Shown here one piece after another: positions 20,864 to 64,000 of a stretch of DNA of 64,000 nucleotides. The DNA comes from a virus (Duplodnaviria > Caudoviricetes): positions 17,911-81,910 of IMG/VR virus record IMGVR_UViG_3300005076_000003; one strand, written 5' to 3'. Within the stretch, counting starts at the first letter, position 1. Each line of letters opens with the position of its first letter. Under the pieces are notes generated by a model. The model saw only the letters and a program-made list of their open reading frames with translations. It did no database searches and had not been told where the DNA came from. Made by a program: the position numbers and the translations under genes.

Positions 20864-20971
20864 TTAACTATTAACAGCTTCTTCAAGCTCTAAGAACGAA
20901 TTAAGTTTAGCTACTGTTTCACCTAATTTTGATGTAGCAGTTAGTTTACCAATCTTATTCAAATCAGTCAT
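20864..20971 (-). pseudogene. 35-aa orphan, diverged duplicate of the C-terminal half of the GapR/DsbA-like gene at 21741-21971
   Basis: MTDLNKIGKLTATSKLGETVAKLNSFLELEEAVNS aligns with NNLNKVAKLKATQKLGETMLKMAEFSELVESLD. Has a GGAGG RBS inside the HNH 3' end. Confidence 0.75.
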
Positions 20972-21728
20972 TGTAGTCAACCTCCCAATTTATTAAAGCT
21001 TCATAAACTCTAGGATCAATCTGTTCTTTCCATTTATTAGCAACCTCTTTGATGTAGGTTTCTTTCGCTTGCTTGTAAGCTAGGAATGCAGACTCCTCGC
21101 ACTGGTGTAATCCTAAAAATACAGATTTACCTTTTATACTCAGAGATGCAGAATATTTTAATAAAGCTTTATTAAAATAGACACCTAAAGGTTGCTCTCC
21201 TCTGTGGTTTTTTCTTAAAGTGAATAACCCATTAATCTCTTGAGGTACAAAACAACAAGTTGTTTCACTATACACCTTATTACCTTTCACCAAAATATCC
21301 TTATCTAAGTGGAACAGTGCCCCTTTTTCATCTATAGAGTTAAAACCAACTTGCTTATTACACCAATCTTTGAAATAAGTAAAGTATTTAAAGTTATCAG
21401 ATACTTTACAATCTACGTATGTGGTACAATGGTATTGTTGAGACTTTCTTTCATAGTAACACCTCTTTAACACCTCTACCCAAACAAGATAGTGTGGTTT
21501 ATCATCTTCAGATATTGTACAAAAACCTGTTACACCAACACCGAACACGCTAGGTAACAAGTAGTCTTTTACTTCTCCTTTGTTTATGCTTGATATATCA
21601 ACACGGTATTCACAACCTGTACTTAAGAATCGTATTAGCCTTTTATTATCGTTCCCAGTCTTGCTCAATATCTTAAAAACTCCACAATTGTTGGAATGTA
21701 CAGTGTCCCCAACTCGGTATCTACCCAC
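20964..21728 (-). mobile_element. Free-standing HNH homing endonuclease gene
   Basis: W.EVLKRCY, LDKDILVKGNKVYSETTCCFVPQEIN, C-terminal EVANKWKEQID. Confidence 0.85.
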
Positions 21729-23728: not shown

Positions 23729-26110
23729 TTAGTGACATCCAAACCAGTTCTTGTGTACGACCCATTCGTATCCAAGAGGTACTTTTAGTTTAACTTCTTC
23801 TACAGCCATGTCAATAGCTTTAGTGATTGCTTTTGATACAGGGTTTGGTAAAGCTATAACAAGTGTACCATTCTTACCCTCTACTGCGCTACCTAACTGC
23901 TCGCCATCCCATGTTGATTCAAACTCTTTCAATTCATCTTCAGTTTTAAAGATTTTATATTGAATAAGTTTAGGGTTTACTGCTAATTGACATTCATCGT
24001 GGTACTCAATCATACCACACATATCAATCGTTTTTTCCTTAAACGGGTTGCACTTATACCCTTGTTCCTCTAACAACTGATAGATAAATATAGTAGCATA
24101 CTTAGCACAAATAACACCTCCTGATTGAAATAAAGCATTTAGGAGCGAGTGCTTAGATCGAGTAACAATCTTACGTCCATCAACACCAATTACAAATGAT
24201 TTACCACGAGCTTCCCATGAACTTCCTACAGCGTCACGCAAGTTCTTCAACGGCTCTACAGCATCCCAATAAGCATCAAACAACGCCTTAGCCTGTTCAT
24301 CTGTCAAACCTAGCATCTTCTTCAACTTCTGATAAGCAGCACCATACATTAATGCATACGATACAGATTTAGCTTGGTCACGAGGAATACCTAACTTCTT
24401 AGCATTTAAGCTGTGAATGTCATTAGGCTTACTTGCAAGGAGTTGTTCAGCTAAATCATCTCCATTAAAAGGTAAGATATAATGCCCTTGTATACGAGCC
24501 TCTAAAGATGAAAAGTCAAACCCAAGTTGTACCATACCTTCACCACAACCGAACAAACTTCGCATTTCTTTACCATAAATAGAAGATGCTCGTGCAATAT
24601 TACACACACCAATATGGCGGTAACGGTTTGTAGACGCTCCAATCTCGATAGCAGGGGTTGCCACACGACCATCAATATCACGGTACATGGATAAGAAACC
24701 AGTGTTAGGAGCTTCTTCATCGAAGTCCATATCGTCAATATCACCACCAGCAATACTACTTTTACGATGTCGGTAAGTTAAGTACAATGAAAAGTCATTA
24801 GCAAATGCAACCTTATCTCCAAGAGCGACTAAGTTCGGACAAAGTTCTTTCTCTACCCCTACACGTACAGCAGGGGATGTAGGAATACGAACAGGTTTGT
24901 TATCCGCTAACTTCTTTAACAACTTAGCCCGTATAGATGCTTTATTGTAACCCATATCCAACTCAAGTAGACGAGCTTCTTTATACTTACCCTCATCAAA
25001 TGTTTGGTTTAACCAAGTGTCCGTAGCAGCAACTCGTTTCTCATAAGAAATTGATTGCTTCTTAGAGTCTTTAGTTAAATCCCTTACCTTAAACTCTGTA
25101 GGTTTCCACCCTAAGTTGATCAAGTGCATCTTAACATGATCTAGGTCATCAATGGACGCTGTCTCGTGGGTTTCAATTGGCTCTTCAAAAGGCATCTTAC
25201 GGGCATAACCGTTGTAGATAAACAAATCGTCATCAATTTCAGCACCATGTTTTGCAGCAAAGTTTTTCATGTGTGCAGTAGGTGTGCCATCTTGCTTCAG
25301 TTGGTTTTTAGGTGGAGTGTAAGCTTTCAACGTACCTTTGTTCATTGGCTTAGGCGGTAAGATTGGATTAACCTTATCGGCTAATGATTGCATCTTTTCT
25401 TGTAAATTTTCAAGACATGCAATAGCAGCTTCTTTATCAAACCAAAAACCATAAGATTCTCGTCTAATAGCTAAGTCAGCTAACTTGTTTTCAAGTTTTT
25501 CAGGTTTAGCCCATTTAGGGTAAGAGGTAAACTCTTGCTCTAACTCTAAATAAACAAGCTTCGTTACTAAAGTATCTTGTTGACAGTAACTAAGCATAAT
25601 ATCTGAATACTGTCTGAACTCCTCGCCTTTTGGTGTATTACTTGGGATTAATCCTGCATCAATAGATTGTTGGCGGAAGTCATCTTTAAAACTACCTAAA
25701 CGTTTACCCCAAGCTTCAAGTGAGTGACCACCATAACGGTCAGGGTTAAACAGACGAGAACGAATTAATGTGTCTGTAATCTTAACTTCCTTACCAAACA
25801 ACTTATCAGGTTTGCCAAGATAACCGACTTCATAGTCCAACACACCGAATAAATCCAAAGCAATAAAGTCGAACTTAATGCCATTGTGTGCAATAACTTC
25901 TGTACAACCTTCAAACGCTTTCTGTACTTGATCTTTAGTGATCGTGCTTCCTGTTGGACTGAATAACGATACTGTTTCATCCGTATCTACGTCACGGACA
26001 ACGACACACCATAAACGAGCTTCATTGTTCATCTTGTATGGCAATGTTGAAAAATCTAGCATGTTTGCTAGTAAATTATTTGCTTCAATGTCTACTACTA
26101 ATCTTTTCAC
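23729..26110 (-). CDS. polA: DNA polymerase family A (T7-like) with 3'-5' exonuclease
   Basis: ExoI VVDIEAN, ExoII AHNGIKFD, ExoIII YCQQD, motif A FDFSSLE, motif B RDQAKSVSYALMYG, motif C YHDE. Confidence 0.95.
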   Translation of the reverse strand: MKRLVVDIEANNLLANMLDFSTLPYKMNNEARLWCVVVRDVDTDETVSLFSPTGSTITKDQVQKAFEGCTEVIAHNGIKFDFIALDLFGVLDYEVGYLGKPDKLFGKEVKITDTLIRSRLFNPDRYGGHSLEAWGKRLGSFKDDFRQQSIDAGLIPSNTPKGEEFRQYSDIMLSYCQQDTLVTKLVYLELEQEFTSYPKWAKPEKLENKLADLAIRRESYGFWFDKEAAIACLENLQEKMQSLADKVNPILPPKPMNKGTLKAYTPPKNQLKQDGTPTAHMKNFAAKHGAEIDDDLFIYNGYARKMPFEEPIETHETASIDDLDHVKMHLINLGWKPTEFKVRDLTKDSKKQSISYEKRVAATDTWLNQTFDEGKYKEARLLELDMGYNKASIRAKLLKKLADNKPVRIPTSPAVRVGVEKELCPNLVALGDKVAFANDFSLYLTYRHRKSSIAGGDIDDMDFDEEAPNTGFLSMYRDIDGRVATPAIEIGASTNRYRHIGVCNIARASSIYGKEMRSLFGCGEGMVQLGFDFSSLEARIQGHYILPFNGDDLAEQLLASKPNDIHSLNAKKLGIPRDQAKSVSYALMYGAAYQKLKKMLGLTDEQAKALFDAYWDAVEPLKNLRDAVGSSWEARGKSFVIGVDGRKIVTRSKHSLLNALFQSGGVICAKYATIFIYQLLEEQGYKCNPFKEKTIDMCGMIEYHDECQLAVNPKLIQYKIFKTEDELKEFESTWDGEQLGSAVEGKNGTLVIALPNPVSKAITKAIDMAVEEVKLKVPLGYEWVVHKNWFGCH

Positions 26111-26192
26111 TTTTACTCCTTATAAAACGCAAAAGAACAGATGAAGCAATAATACCTCATCTGTTCTAGTGTTGTCTATACGTGTTTACACA

Positions 26193-26963
26193 TTAGTCAG
26201 TTATTTCTACCTCATACTTCATTAAAGCTTCATAAACTCTTGGGTCAATTTGATCTTTCCATTTGTTAGCTACCTCTTTGATGTAAGCTTCTTTTGCTTC
26301 TTTGTAAGCTAAGAACGCACCTTCAGGTGTGCTAGAGTACCCAAACTTTCTACGATCTTTCCCTACATTTAATTGGGCGAAAAAGTTACCCCCTCTCTTG
26401 TCAACAGTTACTCCGATAGGATACGCACCTCTGTGGTTTTGTCTCTTAGTTAAAAGATTGTTAATCTCTCTTGGAACTAGCACACAAGTATCTTCACTGT
26501 ACACCTTATTGTCTTTTACTAAAATATCTTTATCTAAAAACCAATCATTATCTGCACCGATCTGACTAACATACCAATTTTGAAAATAAGTGTAATCTGT
26601 AAAATTGTCAGATACAGTACATCCTACATAAGTCGGGCACTTCAACTTATGATCATCAGCGTAACATCTTTGAAGCATGTTGCGCCAAGCATGGTATTCC
26701 TTTCTAATCTTACCGTTTAACTTTACAGGGGCATCGCCTACAAAACCAACCCCACACACTGTTGGAGCATACCGATCTTTAACCCCTCCTGATTTAATAT
26801 CACTAATACGAGCAATTGTGTGGTTTCCAGTGTTTAAAAATTTAACTAGAACATCATTCCATTTTCGGTAATCAACAATGATCAAATCACCGTAATTCTT
26901 TGTTGGATATACTTTACCATCTTGAATTTTCTTGTTTATTTCATGTCGCCCGTTACTTCCCAC
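26193..26963 (-). mobile_element. Free-standing HNH homing endonuclease gene
   Basis: Same family as 20964-21728; WRNMLQRCY, LDKDIL, VEITD end. Confidence 0.85.
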
Positions 26964-26975
26964 GTTTCACCTCCT

Positions 26976-28847
26976 TTAAAAATTAGTTTTTTGGTTTAGT
27001 AAAAAAGTTTCTAGGTTATATTGTTTACGAGTTAACGGGTCATAATATAACTTACAAACATCACTACCTGTTAAACCTCCACGACACTTAGGCATGTCTA
27101 CATAAGTTGTATTCTTAATAATTGGGTCACTTGCCATTTTATTACGATTTAACACAATGTTAATATCAGCAGATTGTGGGATAGTCCCGCTACCCAAGAT
27201 GTCATACTCCGAAACACGTTTAAACTTAGTATCATCTTTCACCTCATCTTGCTTTTTGCTACCCATTTCAGGTGACGCTGCGTTTTTGGTAGTGTGCAGT
27301 ACGTTCACAAATATAGCACCTTCTTTCTTCATTTGTTTCTGCCAAAGCATGTGCTCTTCTTGCTTATCCAAAGGTAAAGATCGAATTACGTCCGTCAATA
27401 CATCAAGTACAAAAAGCCGAGAACCTAGACTCTTCATAGCTTTTTCCAACTGCTTTTCAAGTTCTTTAATATCCCCTGTGCGAGAATCAATGATGTGAAA
27501 ACGAGGTTGTCCGTACTCGTCAACTAGCATATCTTCACACATAGTCTTAACGTCTTCTCGATCTAAGTAAGCTAAAGCGTCTCTCCCGTCCTCAAACCAA
27601 GTCAAGTTCTGCTCAATGTGGTATGAATATAAATCTAAGATTAACTCAGAAGCGGTACGCTCAATTGTCAAAACTGTAGGTACTAGAGGACTATGGTAAA
27701 TCCAATGGTGTAAAAGGGTATCTGAGAAAAACGACTTACCGATAGATGTTAAACCGATAATGTTTACTATCGCCCCACTTGATTTGATACCTCCTCTCAT
27801 AGCTGTTTGTAGTTCGTGCATTTGTGGTGGAAGTGTAATCTTCTCAGCCAATAAGTGTTCACGAACCCCTTGCGCGGCATCTACAGATGTCATTATTCCA
27901 GTTGAAATTAAAGGTTTTGCGCTATAAAAATCACTGATAAATTGTTTCTGTTTTCCTGTTTGTAGCATCTCAGAGCAGTCTTTAAGTGAAGTTACCATGA
28001 CCTTTACTTTGTTCTCTGGCAGAACTTTAATAGCTTCTTGCACAGCTTTACGCCCAGCTTCGTCATTGTCCATACAAAGAATAACTTCTTCGAAACTATC
28101 AATGAAATCATAACTATTCGCACAAACTTTAGATAAGGTTGCTTCACCACAATGAATACCAACAACAGCAATGCGGTCATAATCTTCTTGTTTACGTTGA
28201 ATTTGATAATCACGTAGCATTTGAGCAGCAGCTAATTTGTCTTCTTCACCACCAACAATCAGTAACCACTTTCCTCCTGAAGTAAACTTATGACTTCCGC
28301 TCAAATCATTGCTAGTACCAACTATACCAATGTTGTGACGACCAAACGCTTTAGGTAAATCTCGTGACTTGTAACCACGTAAAGAATTTAGCTCACCTTT
28401 GAACGTTGACTTAGTTTCAGGATAATACGTTCGTATAATTTCACCACTAGAATCACGCTCGAATAAATGACCGTAGAAGTGCGCTGTTTCAGGTTTAATT
28501 GAACGATATAGACTACCATCCTTCATAGTCGTATCGTGGTTAGAACGAGCAATAAGAGCTTTGTACTCATCTTTTGTAATAGCTGTACGGGTAACAGGTT
28601 TTACTTTAGGAACAACGAACCCTTCTTCAAGAACTCCTTGCTCTTTCAGCATAGCTTCAGTCATATACTTATTCTCACAGCTAGGTGTAAAACAACTAGC
28701 ATCAAGGTACTCTTCACCCTGCTCGTTATGCTTAACATAGACAACTAAATTATCCTGTGAACCACAGCTCTCACACGGGAACTTCCCAAGAACAGTACCC
28801 TGTACCAATTCTTTAACTTCTTTCGTATCTTTCATTTCTTTACTCAC
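26976..28847 (-). CDS. DNA primase-helicase (T7 gp4-like)
   Basis: Zn finger CESC...CFTPSC, TOPRIM GGEED and MDNDEAG, DnaB Walker A GLTSIGKS, LDVLT, LGSG.IPQSAD, KCR. Confidence 0.92.
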   Translation of the reverse strand: MSKEMKDTKEVKELVQGTVLGKFPCESCGSQDNLVVYVKHNEQGEEYLDASCFTPSCENKYMTEAMLKEQGVLEEGFVVPKVKPVTRTAITKDEYKALIARSNHDTTMKDGSLYRSIKPETAHFYGHLFERDSSGEIIRTYYPETKSTFKGELNSLRGYKSRDLPKAFGRHNIGIVGTSNDLSGSHKFTSGGKWLLIVGGEEDKLAAAQMLRDYQIQRKQEDYDRIAVVGIHCGEATLSKVCANSYDFIDSFEEVILCMDNDEAGRKAVQEAIKVLPENKVKVMVTSLKDCSEMLQTGKQKQFISDFYSAKPLISTGIMTSVDAAQGVREHLLAEKITLPPQMHELQTAMRGGIKSSGAIVNIIGLTSIGKSFFSDTLLHHWIYHSPLVPTVLTIERTASELILDLYSYHIEQNLTWFEDGRDALAYLDREDVKTMCEDMLVDEYGQPRFHIIDSRTGDIKELEKQLEKAMKSLGSRLFVLDVLTDVIRSLPLDKQEEHMLWQKQMKKEGAIFVNVLHTTKNAASPEMGSKKQDEVKDDTKFKRVSEYDILGSGTIPQSADINIVLNRNKMASDPIIKNTTYVDMPKCRGGLTGSDVCKLYYDPLTRKQYNLETFLLNQKTNF

Positions 28848-29187: not shown

Positions 29188-29372
29188 TTTGTTCTCCTTA
29201 GAACTTCTTTGCTCAATGTGAGCATCTTCGATACGAGCATCCTACACCCAACACCTCAATTCTGTCAACACCAATGTTGGATTAATTTACACAGGTTAAT
29301 TACTAATCAAATAGTAAAACTAAATTCATTTGTAAAACATCATCTTAACAAATCTCTTACTTCTGAAGGGGG

Positions 29373-29401
29373 TTGACAAGATAAAAGGTCAGCCCTATAC
29401 T
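29373..29401 (+). promoter_or_regulatory. Sigma70-type promoter
   Basis: TTGACA-N17-TATACT. Confidence 0.8.
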
Positions 29402-29660
29402 GAACTGAGGGGAAGGGGAGGAAGTTAGTTATTTAAAACAAATAATATTACTATATTGAATACATGAGCTATGTATGATCATATGATATATAATTAATTA
29501 AATATATTTATACTAATTATATAACTTATAGTATACCTAAAGTATTACATTTAGTTTACTATTAAGTATTAACTATACATACTGTATTAGATATATAACT
29601 ATAATTAATATAAGATATGTATATACATTATTTTGTGTTATCAATTATAAATATATTAAA
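29402..29660. other. Candidate replication origin element 1: G-rich tract, conserved 33-mer, very AT-rich region
   Basis: GAGGGGAAGGGGAGGAAG, then aaataatattactatattgaatacatgagctat, which is shared with 63273-63305. Confidence 0.5.
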
Positions 29661-29687
29661 ATATATGTTGTTTTATCATCATAGGTG

Positions 29688-29716
29688 TTGACATCATATT
29701 TGTGTTTGTGTAATAT
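29688..29716 (+). promoter_or_regulatory. Sigma70-type promoter for the rightward early region
   Basis: TTGACA-N17-TAATAT, then AAGGAG RBS of 29744. Confidence 0.75.
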
Positions 29717-29743
29717 CTAAATAATCAAATAAGGAGATGTGTT

Positions 29744-30337
29744 ATGATTTTTGAAGACTTACATAAAATGATGTTAAATGTAAACAAAGATAGTTTAGAT
29801 AAATCCATTGCTGACTGTCATGTTAAAGATGTGTTTTCTTTGGTTGTTGGCGGTACAGAGCATGGTAATCTTACTCGTGTGTTCATTGCAACAAAGAAGA
29901 TTAGACCGTTTGATATTCAATTTCACTCACACCGTTATGGTTTAAGAATAGGGGTTATTAACGGTGTGTTTGAACACCATGTGGCTATTAAAGCCAAAGG
30001 TAAATCCAACACTAATCGCGTCGGTTTAATTGAGTATGACTACAAATCACCTTTGAATGGTGGAAACGGGTTAACTAAGATTGGTCAAGGTGTTTACGAC
30101 CTTACTTCTTATAAAGTTCCTGTTGGTGGAGAGATGTATTTACCACACGATTTAGTTCACTCTGTTTCGTGTTCCAAAGGTTCTATGTGGGTTGTGCAAG
30201 AGTTAGGTTTTAGAGATGATTCTAGTGTTGTGTTAGGAACAGATTTCTCAACAGTAGGTTTGTACAATGCACCAAAACAGTTTCAAGTGAACAATATGTA
30301 CGAACAAGTGCTTGAGAAATTGAAGAAGTTAGTTTAA
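29744..30337 (+). CDS. Cupin-like (cysteine-dioxygenase-like) metal-binding protein
   Basis: FHSHRY..IGV.NG.FEH and LVHSV motifs. Confidence 0.45.
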   Translation: MIFEDLHKMMLNVNKDSLDKSIADCHVKDVFSLVVGGTEHGNLTRVFIATKKIRPFDIQFHSHRYGLRIGVINGVFEHHVAIKAKGKSNTNRVGLIEYDYKSPLNGGNGLTKIGQGVYDLTSYKVPVGGEMYLPHDLVHSVSCSKGSMWVVQELGFRDDSSVVLGTDFSTVGLYNAPKQFQVNNMYEQVLEKLKKLV

Positions 30338-42731: not shown

Positions 42732-43356
42732 ACCCATATTTAACTGTGAGTGCTTTTAGTATTGAGACCCTAAGTCCTTGATAAACATGACTAATGCCCA
42801 CTTTGGTTCGGACGCTTCGGTTACTGATTTTTTTGGCATTTGCTGTTTGACCTAGCGATTCTAAAAATTTTGTCACTTCATGCCAGACCTGTTTTTCCCC
42901 TAAAAGTTTTAGGTATCTGAATTTCGGTATAACTTCTTTCAATTTCAAATTCATTGGTACAAATAAAAAATATTTATCAATAATTAAAAATTTATAACTT
43001 GATTTAATTATAACTTTTAGTTATTAATGAATTGATTATTCATAACCTTAAATTCCTAGCTTGTATAAGCTTTACAGTTACAAAAAACTTTTAAAATAAA
43101 TTGACTTGAGTATGCTTATTAGTGTATTCGCATAGGCGCGTTTCCTTTATAGTGAAAAATGAGTTTTATAAGCTGCCAGCAGGTAACGCCACGTTTTAAG
43201 CCTTTCCTTATGCACTAATAATAAAACAAGCATTGAAAAAACACGGCACAACGTAAAAACATGCAAGGGATGCAAAAAACATTGTATTTTTAAAAGATAA
43301 TTTTATTTAATATTCAATTACTTATTAAAAACTTTATAATTAATTTAAAATAGGTG

Positions 43357-43385
43357 TTGACGCGGTTTTATAAATTTACTAATAT
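43357..43385 (+). promoter_or_regulatory. Sigma70-type promoter heading the pre-early-like block
   Basis: TTGACG-N17-TAATAT with AT-rich upstream element. Confidence 0.65.
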
Positions 43386-48963: not shown

Positions 48964-50437
48964 AATCGTTTAGAGCTTCATTAAATACTTGCTCAAATTC
49001 TGCTGGCAGTTGTATATTCAACTTAGCTCGTGTACAAGCTACATAGAATAAGTTAATTTCTTGTTGGTTGTAACCTTTCTCATGTGGAAGTTTTAGAATA
49101 GTTTCTACAGGAAAGTCATCACCAACAATTACATTATCCCACTCCATACCTTTACTCTTGTGTGCTGTAATCAGAAGAATATCAAAATCACTTGATTGTT
49201 TCTTCATCTTGTTCAAAGCTGATAAGTAGCGTTGTGTTTGATTACCTAATACAATATTTACAATCCGTTTGTATTCTATGTGTTCATCTAAAGCTTCCAG
49301 CAAATCGTTCCATGTACCATATAGAGAAATATCTTCATCTTTTACATTCTTAGAATCTCCAATGAATAAAGCTTCAACACTCTTTAATAAGCTTTCAAAC
49401 TTAGTTGTGTCGATCTCGCACTTAACACGTTTACCAGCAGATAATAGGCGTACAGCATTGTCAATCAAACAAGCATTGGTGCGAAAGATCATTGTGTACT
49501 GTTCTGTGTTCACTTGGGTAACACTGCTCTCAATTGTTGGTGTTCCTTTAATATGTATCTGCCCATCAATAATGTATGTAGCTAACTCAGCAATGGAGTT
49601 ACCAAAGCGGAACGATTGAGACAATACCTTTGTTGGTGCTTCAATATTCTCCATAGCGTTTACAGCCTGTCGCCACTGATAGATACTTTGAAAAGAATCT
49701 CCAACATAGACAATCTTACAGTGCTTCTGATTCATAATAACATCTAGCATTACAGGGTTAGCATCTTGTGCCTCATCAAAGTAGATAATATCATAAGGTA
49801 GTTGTGGTTTAGATAACTGCCATAGTTTTAAGTATGTATCATGCTCTGCCATAACTACAGAGTTTGGATTAATACGATCACACCATAAAATATTTGCATA
49901 TCGAACAATCTTATCTTTAAGAGTAGGTTCATCAATATCAGGGTGTGTATCTAAAACTTCTTTTAACTGTTTATACGGAATGTTCTTAATTGTGATGTGT
50001 TCATCCATACTGTTCTGAAAGCGATTCACAGTATCTTTGATTAGTGTTGCAATTGTACGTGCTGTAACAGCTACACCTTCTCGTGGTGTAATATCTTCAA
50101 TGCGATAATACTTAACAATCTCTGAAACAGTTTTAGCTACATTAATATAACCAATACCCTTCACTCTACTTAGTTTGTGTTGTAACATACTTCCAAAGAC
50201 ACTGTAAGCTAGTGAGTGTGTTGTTCTACAGTTTACATTCTTAGGGAATTTGTTTTGTGCTTCTGTAGCAACAGTTTTGTTATAACAAACATACAACGAT
50301 GGTTGGTTGTTTTGTTCAGCTAACATTTTCAATGTGCTAGATTTACCTGACCCAGCACATGCGTTTACTTTAAGAATACGATGTTCTTTGAATGAATCTA
50401 AGATTGTCTGTTGTTCGTGTGTTGGTGTTAGTTGCAT
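48938..50437 (-). CDS. SF1 (UvrD/Rep-like) DNA helicase
   Basis: ACAGSGKSS, FDEAQD, VGDSFQSIY.WR, SFRFG, TAHKSKG.EWD, YVACTRAK. Confidence 0.92.
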   Translation of the reverse strand: MQLTPTHEQQTILDSFKEHRILKVNACAGSGKSSTLKMLAEQNNQPSLYVCYNKTVATEAQNKFPKNVNCRTTHSLAYSVFGSMLQHKLSRVKGIGYINVAKTVSEIVKYYRIEDITPREGVAVTARTIATLIKDTVNRFQNSMDEHITIKNIPYKQLKEVLDTHPDIDEPTLKDKIVRYANILWCDRINPNSVVMAEHDTYLKLWQLSKPQLPYDIIYFDEAQDANPVMLDVIMNQKHCKIVYVGDSFQSIYQWRQAVNAMENIEAPTKVLSQSFRFGNSIAELATYIIDGQIHIKGTPTIESSVTQVNTEQYTMIFRTNACLIDNAVRLLSAGKRVKCEIDTTKFESLLKSVEALFIGDSKNVKDEDISLYGTWNDLLEALDEHIEYKRIVNIVLGNQTQRYLSALNKMKKQSSDFDILLITAHKSKGMEWDNVIVGDDFPVETILKLPHEKGYNQQEINLFYVACTRAKLNIQLPAEFEQVFNEALNDYEEEDFDD

Positions 50438-51845: not shown

Positions 51846-52118
51846 AATTTTCATTTAATCGTTATATTGCCACCTAAACCACTTATTTATTTTCATTTTA
51901 TGAAAATCGTGAGTACATTCGTGCTCAGTCTTTAACACCAAACATTTAACAATGATAAGGTTCAACCAAAGGTGTTGTAGATATGCTCTAACGCCCATAC
52001 CTTCTCCGTTACATGAATAGTGACAATGTTTTTCATAAAACCAAGAGGGTAATATTCCAAAATACAGGGATTTAAATATGGCGTAACCCCTTTGTCTTAA
52101 ACTTAACATTACTGACTA

Positions 52119-52133
52119 CCCCCCCCCCCCCCC
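52119..52133 (-). repeat. G15 homopolymer (C15 on +)
   Basis: 15 consecutive C, encoding KGGGGG at the end of ORF 52109-52399. Confidence 0.85.
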
Positions 52134-53260
52134 TTAATCACCAATTTATCTGTTTTATGAGATGTTTCTCCGATTAGGTCATGCACTTCGTAATGAAGTT
52201 TAAAAGTCTCCATCAGACTCTCTAGGTTGGTCTCTTTCTTAAATACACCATATATCTCGTTTGAGGATTCATCTAATTCTGATTCATAACCATGTTCATT
52301 CTTTAACCATGTAACCATTGCTGAAAAAGATGAGAATACACCTTCTGTGTATTTATTTAATTCCCAATCTACAGACTTTAAGATATAAACTTTACTCATC
52401 CTTCAACTCCTTAACATTACGAATTGGTTTACCTACATATTGGTAATCACTTAATTCTAAGTTATTCAAAAGACAATATCCGACAGTTGTTTTATCCAAG
52501 AAAAAACTCTGCTCGTTTATTTAAAAATTCTAAATCCTCTGAGCTTCCTGCAACGGTTGCGATATACTCTAAAAACGGTTCTTTAGGGTCAGTCCCTTCT
52601 ACATAAAAAGTATGGGTTGGAATCTTACTTCCACTATTCTTCCACAATAAATTTACATAAGTTGTGTCTTTAGATAGTGCCAGTTTAAGCACTCTGTTAA
52701 TTAACTTGAGTCGATCTTTTAAAGATAAGACATTCATTTTTTCTTACCCTTCTGTTTATTTCGTAATTTACGAGAAGCTCGTAGTTTAATACGTGTTGAA
52801 TGTTTAGGTACAGTCTCTTTCCACTTCTCTTGTGTTTCGTTCACTTCTCGTTGATACCAAGAAGTTTCAAACTTATAAGTAGTTTTACCAACGATAACAT
52901 CGTGCATCTTTCCATCAGTGTAAAGTTCAGTAGACTCATAACCTTGTCCTAACATATCTGAAACCCAACCAATGTGTTTAGAACCTTTAGCTACTTTGCT
53001 TTTCATTTTCCGCTTTTTATAAAGGCTCATCACAACAAGTGTAACAATTAAAGCTATAAACGATAAAATAAATAATAACACAAATACATCCATAAACTAA
53101 TTCTCCGAACAGTGCGCAATCGCTTCTTCTAATGTGTCAAACCATCTTGTTTCAACATAAGATTTAGAACAACGAAAACATTTATCCCAAAAGTGTATTT
53201 CAACCGTCCAATCTTTTATGTACAAAATATTTTTATCGAACTCTGCTTGCGCTTCAATAC

Positions 53261-54753: not shown

Positions 54754-55641
54754 TTAACTAATATCTTCTATGTGTCTAAACCAAACAAAAGAAGGGCATC
54801 TCGGCTTATCTTTAGCCCCCACACTCATATAGCGAATTGATGCTAACTTTCCTAAATACTTATCTTGATTAGACCAGATTTCATACCTAAGAGCATCCGA
54901 AAAACCCGTGCCACAGTTAAATGTATCATCACCATACTTCAATACTAAACTACCTAGTGTATTTGTAGGGACTAAACCATCTTTTGCGCTACTACGTTCA
55001 GCATAACCTAATTCATCACGCTTCTGTTCATTTGTGTTGTGCATACGTTCATTAAACCCTACAACCTCAAAGTCTTCTTGTTGAAAGAACTTAAACTTAA
55101 TAGATAACTGCTCTTTAGGTGTTGATCTTCCATACTTATAAACACCATCAGGATTCCTGCCAATCAAACCTTCACCACCTTTTACTTTCTCCTTACTTAG
55201 TAACTTTGTTAGTTCTTCCTCTGTTTTAATGTACCACTGTTGTGTAGCTACCACATTAGGGAATTGATCTAATACAAGTTTGTCATTTAAGGTGTACAGA
55301 CGTTCTTTATATGTTTCTGTATTATTTGTAAAGACATCAAAAACATAATAAGTTACATTAGGTGTTCCATCTGTAGACATGACACCTGATGTTGTCTTTT
55401 GAAAAACATCTTTAGCATAAATATCACCAACGATTAGTTCACCATCAAAACCGTTGTACTCCTGTTTACCAAAAAGCTTTTGTACGTGTTTGTTGCGAAT
55501 AGGTTTTAAACTTCTGCTGTAAACAACCCCATCAATTACTAAAGCTCTAATACCATCAAATTTGGTACTTACGTAGATAGGGAATTTAATCTTATCGAAA
55601 GGTACTTCACATGATAATAGTGGGCGTATATTGTTAATCAT
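54754..55641 (-). CDS. lig: ATP-dependent DNA ligase
   Basis: STKFDGIRA (KxDGxR), FDGEL, YVFD, EGLI, KFKFF, CGTGFS, PRCPSF. Confidence 0.92.
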   Translation of the reverse strand: MINNIRPLLSCEVPFDKIKFPIYVSTKFDGIRALVIDGVVYSRSLKPIRNKHVQKLFGKQEYNGFDGELIVGDIYAKDVFQKTTSGVMSTDGTPNVTYYVFDVFTNNTETYKERLYTLNDKLVLDQFPNVVATQQWYIKTEEELTKLLSKEKVKGGEGLIGRNPDGVYKYGRSTPKEQLSIKFKFFQQEDFEVVGFNERMHNTNEQKRDELGYAERSSAKDGLVPTNTLGSLVLKYGDDTFNCGTGFSDALRYEIWSNQDKYLGKLASIRYMSVGAKDKPRCPSFVWFRHIEDIS

Positions 55642-56440
55642 TTATATCAACCTTGTAATTTAATAGTGCAACATAAGAACGTTCATCAATATCATTCATG
55701 TATTTTTGCGCTAGCTCTTTCACATATATTTCCTTTTCAACTTTGTAAGCGCTAAATGCGTCTAACTCGGTGTCAAATAGCCCCACATAAATGGGTTTAC
55801 TATATTTTTTAATGTTTGCTTGATACTTGTTTAATTTCTTATTGTAACACACGCCAATCAGGTGTTCCCCTCGTATACTGTTACTTTTTACTAGTAAAGT
55901 ATTCAGTGAATGTGGTATGAATACACATCCGTCTTCTGAATAGGCCTTGTTATTTTTAATAAGTAAATCTTTATCAATTTCAAAGTATTTTCCTTTTTCG
56001 TCTAATGAATTAAACCCCACTTGGTTATTGCACCATTCGTAAAAATATTCATACGATTTGAAATTTTCCGATACTTCACAACCCTTATATGTTGATAATG
56101 ATTTCCTTTCACTTTTACTATAAACTCGACTAAGAATTGATAACCATAGTGAATATTCTCTTATCTTCTTCCCATTCATTGATGTTGGATATTTACTACC
56201 TATGACACCCACACCATAAGCTGTTCTAACCATCTTATCTCTAACTTTACCGTATAATATATTGTCGAATTTCGCATTAGTTACCCAACCCGTATCCTCA
56301 AATTTAACACAGCAGTAACCACCACTCAACCTCTCTGTTACTGTTAAGTATCCGTAACCTTTGGTTTTTAGTTTTATATTGCCATCAATAATTTTATCTA
56401 TATCTTTTATATAGTAATTATTTAGTTTGTTACAACCCAT
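55634..56440 (-). mobile_element. Free-standing HNH homing endonuclease gene
   Basis: EIDKDLLIKNNKAYSEDGCVFIP; AP2-like tail. Confidence 0.85.
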
Positions 56441-62243: not shown

Positions 62244-62265
62244 GTTTAATTTCCTCTCTAATTAA

Positions 62266-63008
62266 TTAATCGTTAATTTCAACTTCATAGGTAGTAAGAG
62301 CTTCGTAAACTCTGTTATCAATTTGATCTTTCCATTTGTTAGCCACCTCTTTAATATAAGCTTCCTTAGCTTCTTTGTAGATTTGGAATGCTTCTTCTGG
62401 TGTAGAGAAAGAACCTAAACGCTTTCTCTTCTTTCGCCCCACAGATACATCAGCTTGATATTTTCCTTTCTGCTTATCAAACCAAACACCTATTGGTAAG
62501 TCGCCACGAGCAGCATCTCTTTTAATAAACAATCCGTTAATCTCTTGAGGAACAAACAACAAGCGTCTTCACTATATACTTTATTACCTTTAATTAAGAT
62601 GTCTTTGTCCAAATGCCAACCATCTTCGTTAAATCCAATTTGCTTATTACACCACTCTTGAAAGTATGGGTAATACTTAAATTTCTCTGAAACCGAGCAA
62701 TCTGCATATGTAGGAGACTTTTTGTGAAATTCACTATCGTAACACCTTCCAATCACCCCTTTCCATAGGGCATACTCTTTTAAAACTATACCACCAACAG
62801 TAGTTGAAGCATCACCAACTACACCAACACCGTGTAGGCTTGGGAATAACCTGTCTTTAACTAGTCCGTTTCTTATATGGCAGATATGTGCTGTTGTTTC
62901 ATAGTTAGTGTTTATGAACTTAACACATACATTGTGATTATTGATATACTTGGTTACTACCAAGTCGCCATATTTGATAGTTTTAAAAATCTTTCCTTCG
63001 TACTTCAT
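62266..63008 (-). pseudogene. HNH homing endonuclease gene with a single-base deletion near 62554
   Basis: TGT TGT TT GTT CCT, whereas paralogs read CCFVP. The two ORF-track pieces join into one HNH. Confidence 0.8.
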
Positions 63009-63200
63009 ACGAACCTCCCCTTTAGAATTAAGTTTAAAACACAAGTCTCCTAACTCTTATGTTTTCTTGTTTACATTTACTAGTATATGTCACTAAATTC
63101 AATACGTCAACCCCTCTAGCACACAAACATTTAAATTATTTTAAATACAGCAAAAACAATACCTTATCTAAAAACACACCATTGTTACAAAAAATAAAGC

Positions 63201-63230
63201 TTGACAAGATTCAACAAGAGGGGTTAATAT
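63201..63230 (+). promoter_or_regulatory. Sigma70-type promoter overlapping a G4 motif
   Basis: TTGACA-N18-TAATAT. Confidence 0.6.
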
Positions 63231-63480
63231 GGGGACATAGGGGTTACGGGGTTGGATATATCTATCTAGTTTAAATAATATTAATATATTGAATACATGA
63301 GCTATCTAGGATTCAAGAGCTTTTATATAATTATATATATATAACTAAATATAAATAATATTTATATACTAATAATATACTTAATATAAATACTTACTGT
63401 AAGTATAACTTATGTATATCTAAAGAATACTTTAAGTATTACATACTGTACTAGATATAATTAGATTTATATACCTGTCT
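63220..63480. other. Candidate replication origin element 2: G-quadruplex motif, conserved 33-mer, AT-rich region
   Basis: GGGG-N7-GGGG-N5-GGGG-N4-GGGG, with homology to 29440-29595. Confidence 0.55.
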
Positions 63481-63516
63481 TAGGTGTTGTCTTGTTTGGG
63501 TTTAAGATCATACTTG

Positions 63517-63667
63517 TTTGGTGTTAGAGCATAGCGATCTGCTTGGTGTACTAGGTGCTAAGAAGATACCTGATTGAGTTAAACACAACAAACTCAATTA
63601 AACTCAATCTTTTGGTGTTTCTTGTTAATTTGGTGTAATTTCTACAGATTTAACCTGTTTTTGGTGT
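63517..63667 (+). repeat. Five TTGGTGT direct repeats
   Basis: Copies near 63518, 63543, 63612, 63630, 63661. Confidence 0.55.
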
Positions 63668-63716
63668 AAAAAGATAAAAATATTTGTGTTTTGTGCAAGA
63701 ATCAACCTGAAAGGGG

Positions 63717-63744
63717 TTGACACCATATGAACTTATGTTAAACT
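63717..63744 (+). promoter_or_regulatory. Sigma70-type promoter with extended -10
   Basis: TTGACA-N16-TAAACT preceded by TGn. Confidence 0.6.
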
Positions 63745-64000
63745 GTGTCTATACCCACAAGAAAACATGCATTACTTCTTGTTTGGTTAAGGTGTTATAT
63801 CGGAGTTCTCCTACTCCCTTGATAACGTGTTGCTGAATTAAGCTCTATGACACATTAAGGGAGTCACCACCTCCCTAACCAAATCTCCTATGTCGCTACT
63901 CGTTCATATTGAAGTTCATCTCCTTACTTTGATATGATTGCTAGGTAGTCCGTATAATCGTAAGCGGAACTGTTATTGTCCTTACTCCCCTCACGAATCT

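Follow-up and report, generated by a model that had tools for sequence, protein, structure and literature searches.

Paired promoter and G-tract modules as candidate transcription-primed replication origins in a wastewater phage and its TaPaz-like relatives

The primary origin of phage T7 consists of a promoter pair and an AT-rich region, and in phage T4 the origin transcript persists in an R-loop, from which the leading strand is primed; the T4 origins are not known to have a G-tract pair. In lambda and HK022, two sites each, nutL/nutR and putL/putR, lie behind early promoters. At ColE1, a G-run of RNA II anneals to a C-run of the template, and the persistent hybrid primes Pol I, a family A polymerase. 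That the T7 primary origin needs RNA polymerase is credited to Romano et al. (1981) and Fuller and Richardson (1985) in a passage of PMC12796468. Initiation of R-loops by thread-back of the transcript is favored by G-clusters near the RNA 5′ end, as at prokaryotic origins, and R-loop elongation is disfavored where G density is low (PMC4245955). A DNA:RNA hybrid quadruplex needs just two non-template G-tracts (PMC3664831), and it is by a hybrid quadruplex that the mitochondrial replication primer is made at CSB II, where the replisome is T7-like (PMC3488243, PMC4176368).

Here we compare with these systems two modules, elements A (29.4 kb) and B (63.2 kb), in the 81,910-nt genome (G000) of an uncultured phage from wastewater. 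Both lie in what we call the window, the whole 64,000-nt stretch of DNA that was analyzed, bases 17911-81910 of the IMG/VR virus contig. The modules may be two cis-acting replication origins, primed or activated by transcription and served by a T7-like replisome, a reading that we hold tentatively and place a little short of an even chance. The replisome is T7-like as far as its predicted proteins tell, a gp4-like primase-helicase and a family A polymerase, and element A adjoins the genes for both (Toprim + DnaB_C, 26976-28847, and DNA_pol_A, 23729-26110), together with a 108-aa ORF.

The phage resembles the Acinetobacter myovirus TaPaz, with 68% identity between the two PhoH proteins and TaPaz homologues also found for terminase, portal, primase-helicase, and other proteins. 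An exact 20-mer taken from the 33-mer common to elements A and B led to four IMG/VR contigs, a PhoH search to three more relatives, and the promoter-leader cassette of P2(A), used as a DNA pattern, to five further A-type elements; overall, DNA-pattern scans yielded more relatives than PhoH-based locus searches, which gave 3-4. One pattern match, L042, sits in coding DNA and was discarded as a false positive, and a nucleotide search of phage GenBank with 62900-64000 returned no match. Parts of the stretch are contained in 21 public wastewater runs, in Logan contigs fragmented by strain diversity, and the strain variants among these contigs include a 3-nt deletion at 63246, in the linker of the G pair, and an ATA insertion at 63365. 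Seventeen elements make up alignment A2, with the TaPaz copies and BS46_B counted beside it, and whole contigs were compared for G002, G004, G005, G006, and TaPaz.

Contigs of relatives connect the tail of our contig with its head, so that the map is circular, and the DNA right of element B runs on into a structured-RNA/tRNA region at the contig head. In these relatives, window position ~63975 is joined to contig position ~761, which identifies the first ~760 nt of our contig (G000:C1:1-760) as an insertion that they lack. The insertion carries an HNH-like ORF and interrupts the conserved structured-RNA region behind P2(B) (window side 63780-64000). The expectation that the contigs of all relatives would stop near element B proved wrong. 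Only those of G001 and G004 (L007, L008, L011) terminate within the AT block of element A, probably by an assembly break from k-mers common to elements A and B and not at a physical genome end.

Elements A and B have the same order of parts, namely, a leftward promoter, P1, G-runs, the 33-mer, an AT block ending in the ACATACTGTAYTAGATAT box, and P2 (Table 1). Part of this had been recognized in a preliminary description of the locus, and its account of the shared architecture stands: the elements are two copies with the same 33-mer and AT-rich blocks, each at a divergent strand switch, and the exact G-rich sequence differs between them. The copies are paralogous, with a 33-mer identical at all positions but one and equally AT-rich blocks; each switch has a leftward and a second rightward promoter (at 63110 and 63717 in element B); and the G-rich sequence has four runs in B and is a GGGG-AA-GGGG pair in A. 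P1(B) agrees with the consensus at 10 of 12 positions, its TTGACA is retained in all relatives, and in these, as in both copies here, P1 is followed by an AT-rich region; no ORF was found behind P1. The core of the 33-mer, AAATAATATTA, is nearly invariant among relatives. No stretch of the genome is richer in AT than the two AT blocks, and the conserved boxes flank ~200 bp of what is predicted to be its most easily melted DNA. The third most AT-rich stretch (42901-43121, 83% AT) lies upstream of a promoter at 43357 and an Ocr-like gene; having neither the G pair nor the 33-mer, it does not count as a further copy of the module.

Table 1. Features of elements A and B, with positions in the window
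Feature	Position	Strand	Remarks
Leftward promoter of A	29239-29268	-	Drives 108-aa ORF, primase-helicase, PolA
P1(A) and G pair	29373-29418	+	TTGACA, 17-nt spacer, TATACT; then GGGG-AA-GGGG at 29409-29418
AT block of A	29421-29741	.	87% AT; includes 33-mer at 29440-29472
P2(A)	29688-29716	+	Second rightward promoter, inside AT block of A
Leftward early promoter of B	63082-63110	-	GGGG-TTGACG, 17-nt spacer, TATACT; drives HNH/PhoH block
P1(B)	63201-63230	+	TTGACA at 63201-63206, 18-nt spacer, TAATAT at 63225-63230; sigma-70 type
G-run 1	63220-63223	+	GGGG in promoter spacer
G-run 2	63231-63234	+	GGGG in discriminator
Conserved G-run pair (runs 3 and 4)	63240-63243, 63248-63251	+	GGGG-TTAC-GGGG after invariant A
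33-mer	63273-63305	+	32/33 positions equal to 29440-29472
AT block of B	63251-63491	.	87% AT; candidate unwinding element
Conserved box ACATACTGTAYTAGATATA	63441-63459		Closes AT block of B
TTGGTGY array, five boxes	63518-63667	+	Starts at 63518, 63543, 63612, 63630, 63661
P2(B)	63713-63744	+	GGGG-TTGACA, 16-nt spacer, TAAACT; heads structured-RNA/tRNA region

The promoter-leader cassette at P2(A) (29688-29746) is conserved up to the start codon, running TTGACA, 11 nt, TTTGTGTAATATC, and then AGGAGATGTGTTATG, and it is present in L009, L041, L045-L049, L011, L021, and TaPaz (92355-92368). The first gene behind it varies among relatives, with products beginning MIFEDL, MGDNKS, MKTDYV, MSDNKS, and others, which suggests gene swapping behind a fixed expression cassette. 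Promoters of the switch regions (63110, 63713, 29368, and those of relatives) have GGGG or GGTG immediately 5′ of the -35 (GGGGTTGACA/G), a feature missing from most other promoters of the genome.

What is conserved at the predicted 5′ end of the P1 transcript is a pair of G-runs. In the A2 consensus (columns 9-21), an invariant A precedes two GGGG runs joined by a variable linker of 2-4 nt, with G columns that are 76-100% G and linkers as diverse as aa, ta, at, tt, tta, taa, ttgt, ttac, and atta. The pair is present in 15 of the 17 aligned elements, an arrangement behind the promoter that matches a site of predicted hybrid quadruplex formation (PMC3664831), and in both TaPaz copies, as GGG-TT-GGG and GGGG-TCAA-GGGG. 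In 13 of its 15 carriers in the alignment, those in which the aligned pair is also the first, it starts 8-10 nt past the -10 hexamer; in G000_B and L017_B the first run is 1 nt past the -10 if the extra discriminator run is counted. In element B, the pair corresponds to runs 3 and 4 and would occupy roughly positions +2 to +13 in the predicted RNA. Three elements, G003_B, G006_A, and BS46_B, are without it, and the pair is therefore dispensable or replaceable. Beyond the pair, sequence diverges fast, the AT-rich boxes excepted.

Searched as a pattern (TTGACN, 16-18 nt, TAnnnT, and then a G3+ pair within 22 nt), the combination is confined to the AT-rich modules, with two occurrences each in G000, G002, G004, G005, and TaPaz and one in G006; G-run pairs of any kind number only 5-12 in total per strand per genome. 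Two promoter and G-pair modules are thus found in five of six complete genomes examined, and the second copy of G006, at 71.6 kb, has the promoter and boxes without the G pair. Eight cultured TaPaz-like phages each have exactly two places matching the TaPaz module, which in TaPaz itself stands at 14.3 and 49.8 kb. One copy is always near the genes for the T7-like primase-helicase and PolA. In TaPaz module A, P1 is at 49821 on the minus strand, 2.2 kb from the primase/helicase gene and directed away from it, as is also the case in element A. This module stands between two plus-strand genes, antisense to a 204-aa ORF (49046-49660), and being alone between genes and antisense, it is a self-contained unit and not simply the promoter of an operon. 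Paired copies within one genome share lineage-specific boxes, such as the 33-mer in G000, ~150 nt in TaPaz, and TATATATTAGAATCCTAGAC in G006, a likeness that suggests a shared trans factor or gene conversion.

This anatomy of promoter, G-cluster at the RNA 5′ end, and unwinding block fits a transcription-primed origin best. At such an origin, the G-rich 5′ end of the nascent RNA would stay on the C-rich template or thread back onto it; alternatively, two G-tracts of the RNA and two of the displaced strand could combine into a DNA:RNA hybrid quadruplex. The anchored R-loop would then spread into the AT block, the RNA 3′ end would be extended rightward by PolA, and the displaced strand would be loaded with the gp4-like primase-helicase. 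Several comparisons seem to count in favor of this. Linkers vary while the G columns hold, down to the deletion at 63246 in wastewater strains; the modules coincide with the two AT maxima, one of them beside replication genes; the antisense position of TaPaz module A points the same way; and so do the confinement of the pattern to AT-rich modules and its presence twice per genome in the eight cultured phages. Against an origin, the G pair is missing from the three elements named above, the AT block is G-poor and low G density disfavors R-loop elongation (PMC4245955), and neither an initiator protein nor clear iterons were found. P1 in this window could also be an upstream promoter of the rightward operons.

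Scans of the flanking small ORFs against PHROGs and Pfam gave no initiator or DNA-binding annotation, inspection by eye gave no convincing DnaA boxes, and no RNA polymerase gene is annotated in TaPaz. ATACT/AGTAT repeats lie above all 300 shuffles in G002_B and G004_B, and their level in G002_A is reached by 6 of 300; they are significant in these three elements only and not enriched in the others. In B-type elements, and in no others, arrays of two to five TTGGTGY boxes lie between the AT block and P2 (here and in L004, L006, L018, and L019). The array is enriched 30-50 times, with 0.1 expected per 250 nt, and is found on the P1 strand, with none opposite; its boxes could be protein-binding or primase-recognition sites. 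A comparable TAGTGT/TGGTGT array is seen in TaPaz at 91.8-92.3 kb. GC skew was set aside as evidence of an origin, as transcription accounts equally well for gene orientation and skew in the window; the TaPaz skew changes at the border of late and early gene classes near 47.3 kb, not at the 49.8-kb module.

Set beside T7, the module, as a candidate origin, has a promoter directly before an AT-rich stretch, exists in several copies per genome (compare phi1.1A and phi1.1B and the secondary phiOL and phiOR), and goes with a gp4-like primase-helicase and a family A polymerase, a combination for which a dedicated initiator is not needed. The differences are that P1 is of the host sigma-70 type, TTGACA/TAnnnT, instead of the phage RNA polymerase type of T7, that a G-run pair stands at the RNA 5′ end, and that the AT block measures ~200-300 bp versus 61 bp. 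The T4 origins ori(uvsY)/oriF and ori(34)/oriG similarly join a promoter to a downstream unwinding element and are multiple, but their promoters are MotA-dependent middle promoters and the replisome is of another type. With ColE1 RNA II, the module would share the pairing of an RNA G-run with a template C-run ahead of a family A polymerase, whereas RNase H acts on RNA II as a folded preprimer of ~550 nt and the predicted transcripts here are unstructured.

Mitochondrial LSP/CSB II resembles the module in its G-tracts, having a non-template pair downstream of a promoter and making, through a hybrid RNA-DNA quadruplex or R-loop, a primer for a T7-like replisome (PMC3488243, PMC4176368). CSB II, however, lies ~100 nt or more from LSP, and the G pair here opens the RNA almost at once; P1 would be read by the multisubunit bacterial enzyme, and the DNA downstream is AT rich. 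In its most specific form, the origin reading would make the module a phage counterpart of LSP/CSB II: with host RNA polymerase at P1, the first 10-12 nt (A-GGGG-NN-GGGG) and the displaced-strand tracts would give a hybrid quadruplex or anchored R-loop and, from it, a leading-strand primer at two origins per genome. This narrower version we judge unlikely. G-tract-dependent priming of that kind would be conserved in TaPaz-like Acinetobacter phages and wastewater relatives.

Of the competing explanations, control of early transcription survives best, as a possible but somewhat unlikely one. P1 would then be an extra-strong early promoter whose G-rich initial transcript tunes promoter escape or pausing; the boxes AAATAATATTA, ATGAGCTATGTATGAT, and ACATACTGTATTAGATAT would bind a phage or host switch protein or act in the manner of nut/put sites; and the AT block would be DNA that is curved or bound by nucleoid proteins. 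Both window copies do lie in clusters of divergent early promoters, with a second promoter and rightward genes downstream of them, and boxes of one genome resemble each other more closely than they do those of other genomes, as expected for coevolution with one trans factor. The GGGG right after the -10 in this copy and L017 also fits GGG, reportedly the optimal discriminator (Haugen et al. 2006). Two copies behind early promoters recall nutL/nutR of lambda and putL/putR of HK022, which are likewise paralogous cis sites with a linear box and a possible hairpin, but the hairpin here has no statistical support: behind the 33-mer it is no better than shuffles in most elements, its best stems of 4-7 bp being equaled in length in 3% to 100% of shuffles (median about 35%). 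One apparent compensatory change was noticed by eye (TTGAAT/ATTCAA versus TAGAAT/ATTCTA). No N-like factor is known. Against control of early transcription, TaPaz copy A heads no operon and points antisense into a neighboring gene, the ORFs at the flanks include no identified regulator, and G-run starts are absent from the genome's other consensus promoters. A leader peptide encoded by the mini-ORF TTG-GAT-ATA-TCT-ATC-TAG after the G pair was ruled out, because the mini-ORF is present in B-type copies only and absent from A-type copies.

A short noncoding RNA from P1, regulatory or a decoy, with the G-rich 5′ end as its functional part and the AT block ending or spacing the unit, is improbable. 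It would agree with P1 being followed by no ORF and with the module standing alone with its own promoter in TaPaz, where the transcript folds somewhat better than shuffles, if marginally so (z = -1.64, 11 of 200 shuffles as good). Both predicted window transcripts, on the other hand, fold worse than shuffles (z = +0.95 and +0.83) and have no extra structure, which argues against a folded RNA gene. Rfam gave no match at the gathering threshold on the whole window, a tRNA scan of the window found none, and no supported covarying helix was found in the elements; by fold z-scores and Rfam, the transcripts resemble neither a ColE1-type RNA II nor a structured noncoding RNA. No terminator-like site occurs after P1 in the B stretch or on the P1 strand in the A stretch, and the fast divergence downstream of the G pair, outside the AT-rich boxes, also speaks against a functional RNA.

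The preliminary description had centered on four GGGG runs at 63220-63251, and the runs are there exactly as it reported, separated by the loops TTAATAT, ACATA, and TTAC. Its further points, that the motif overlaps a TTGACA promoter and is improbable by chance, are also borne out. By the positions of the two hexamers, run 1 belongs to the spacer, run 2 to the discriminator, and runs 3 and 4 to the predicted transcript start, and 0 of 2000 mononucleotide shuffles gave the motif, which fits the canonical four-run pattern (G3+ N1-7), is the sole motif with G4 runs on either strand of the 81,910-nt genome, and has the second-ranking G4Hunter score there (2.0, behind a C15 run). G-richness behind the promoter, whose loss in relatives was to count against that proposal, is kept among them as the two-run pair. 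The four-tier quadruplex did not hold up as a conserved unit: within A2, 13 of 17 elements have two runs only and two have none, and four runs are found in this copy and its closest relative, L017 (GGGG/GGGG/GGGG/GGG). Runs 1 and 2 occur besides only in L017, with run 1 also in G006_B, and the alignment marks the extra runs as a lineage-specific addition, not the conserved mechanism. It is thus highly improbable that the conserved promoter or origin switch is a four-tier DNA G-quadruplex formed intramolecularly across the -10 region. In favor of one, the motif does exist and has no second instance in the genome, its two extra runs would allow an intramolecular quadruplex whose first loop holds the -10 hexamer, and L017 retains four runs. 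Against it, four runs are missing from 15 of 17 aligned elements, both TaPaz copies, and BS46, element A of the same genome carries two runs plus a GG, and only two of the four would be transcribed, so that an intramolecular RNA quadruplex is impossible.

If the modules are origins, they would represent a bacterial-virus case of G-tract-anchored, transcription-primed initiation by host RNA polymerase and a T7-like replisome, and would tie the origin paradigms of T7 and T4 to the mechanism at mitochondrial CSB II. They would also be a new form of the promoter-plus-AT-rich type, distinguished by a host promoter and a G-tract pair at the RNA 5′ end. If they are transcription-control leaders, the module is still a conserved, unannotated cis element of the family; in the description of TaPaz, the words promoter, origin, and termini do not occur. 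The idea is directly testable, since the module occurs twice in cultured phages that are used experimentally (TaPaz, B9, Ab3/5/7, and phiAB441), and known origins and strongest early promoters would aid the engineering and annotation of TaPaz-like phages.

Elsewhere in the window, a 15-nt homopolymer at 52119-52133, G15 on the coding (minus) strand, forms the 3′ end of ORF 52109-52399(-), where it encodes K-G-G-G-G-G-S-Q-stop with a TAATG overlap with the next gene. No other site in the genome reaches so high an absolute G4Hunter score, and the homopolymer could be a slippage/frameshift site or an assembly artifact. Four paralogous HNH/AP2-type homing-endonuclease genes (20963-21422, 26192-26633, 55633-56092, and 62265-62711) have 60-78% nucleotide identity, and one such gene lies directly left of element B.
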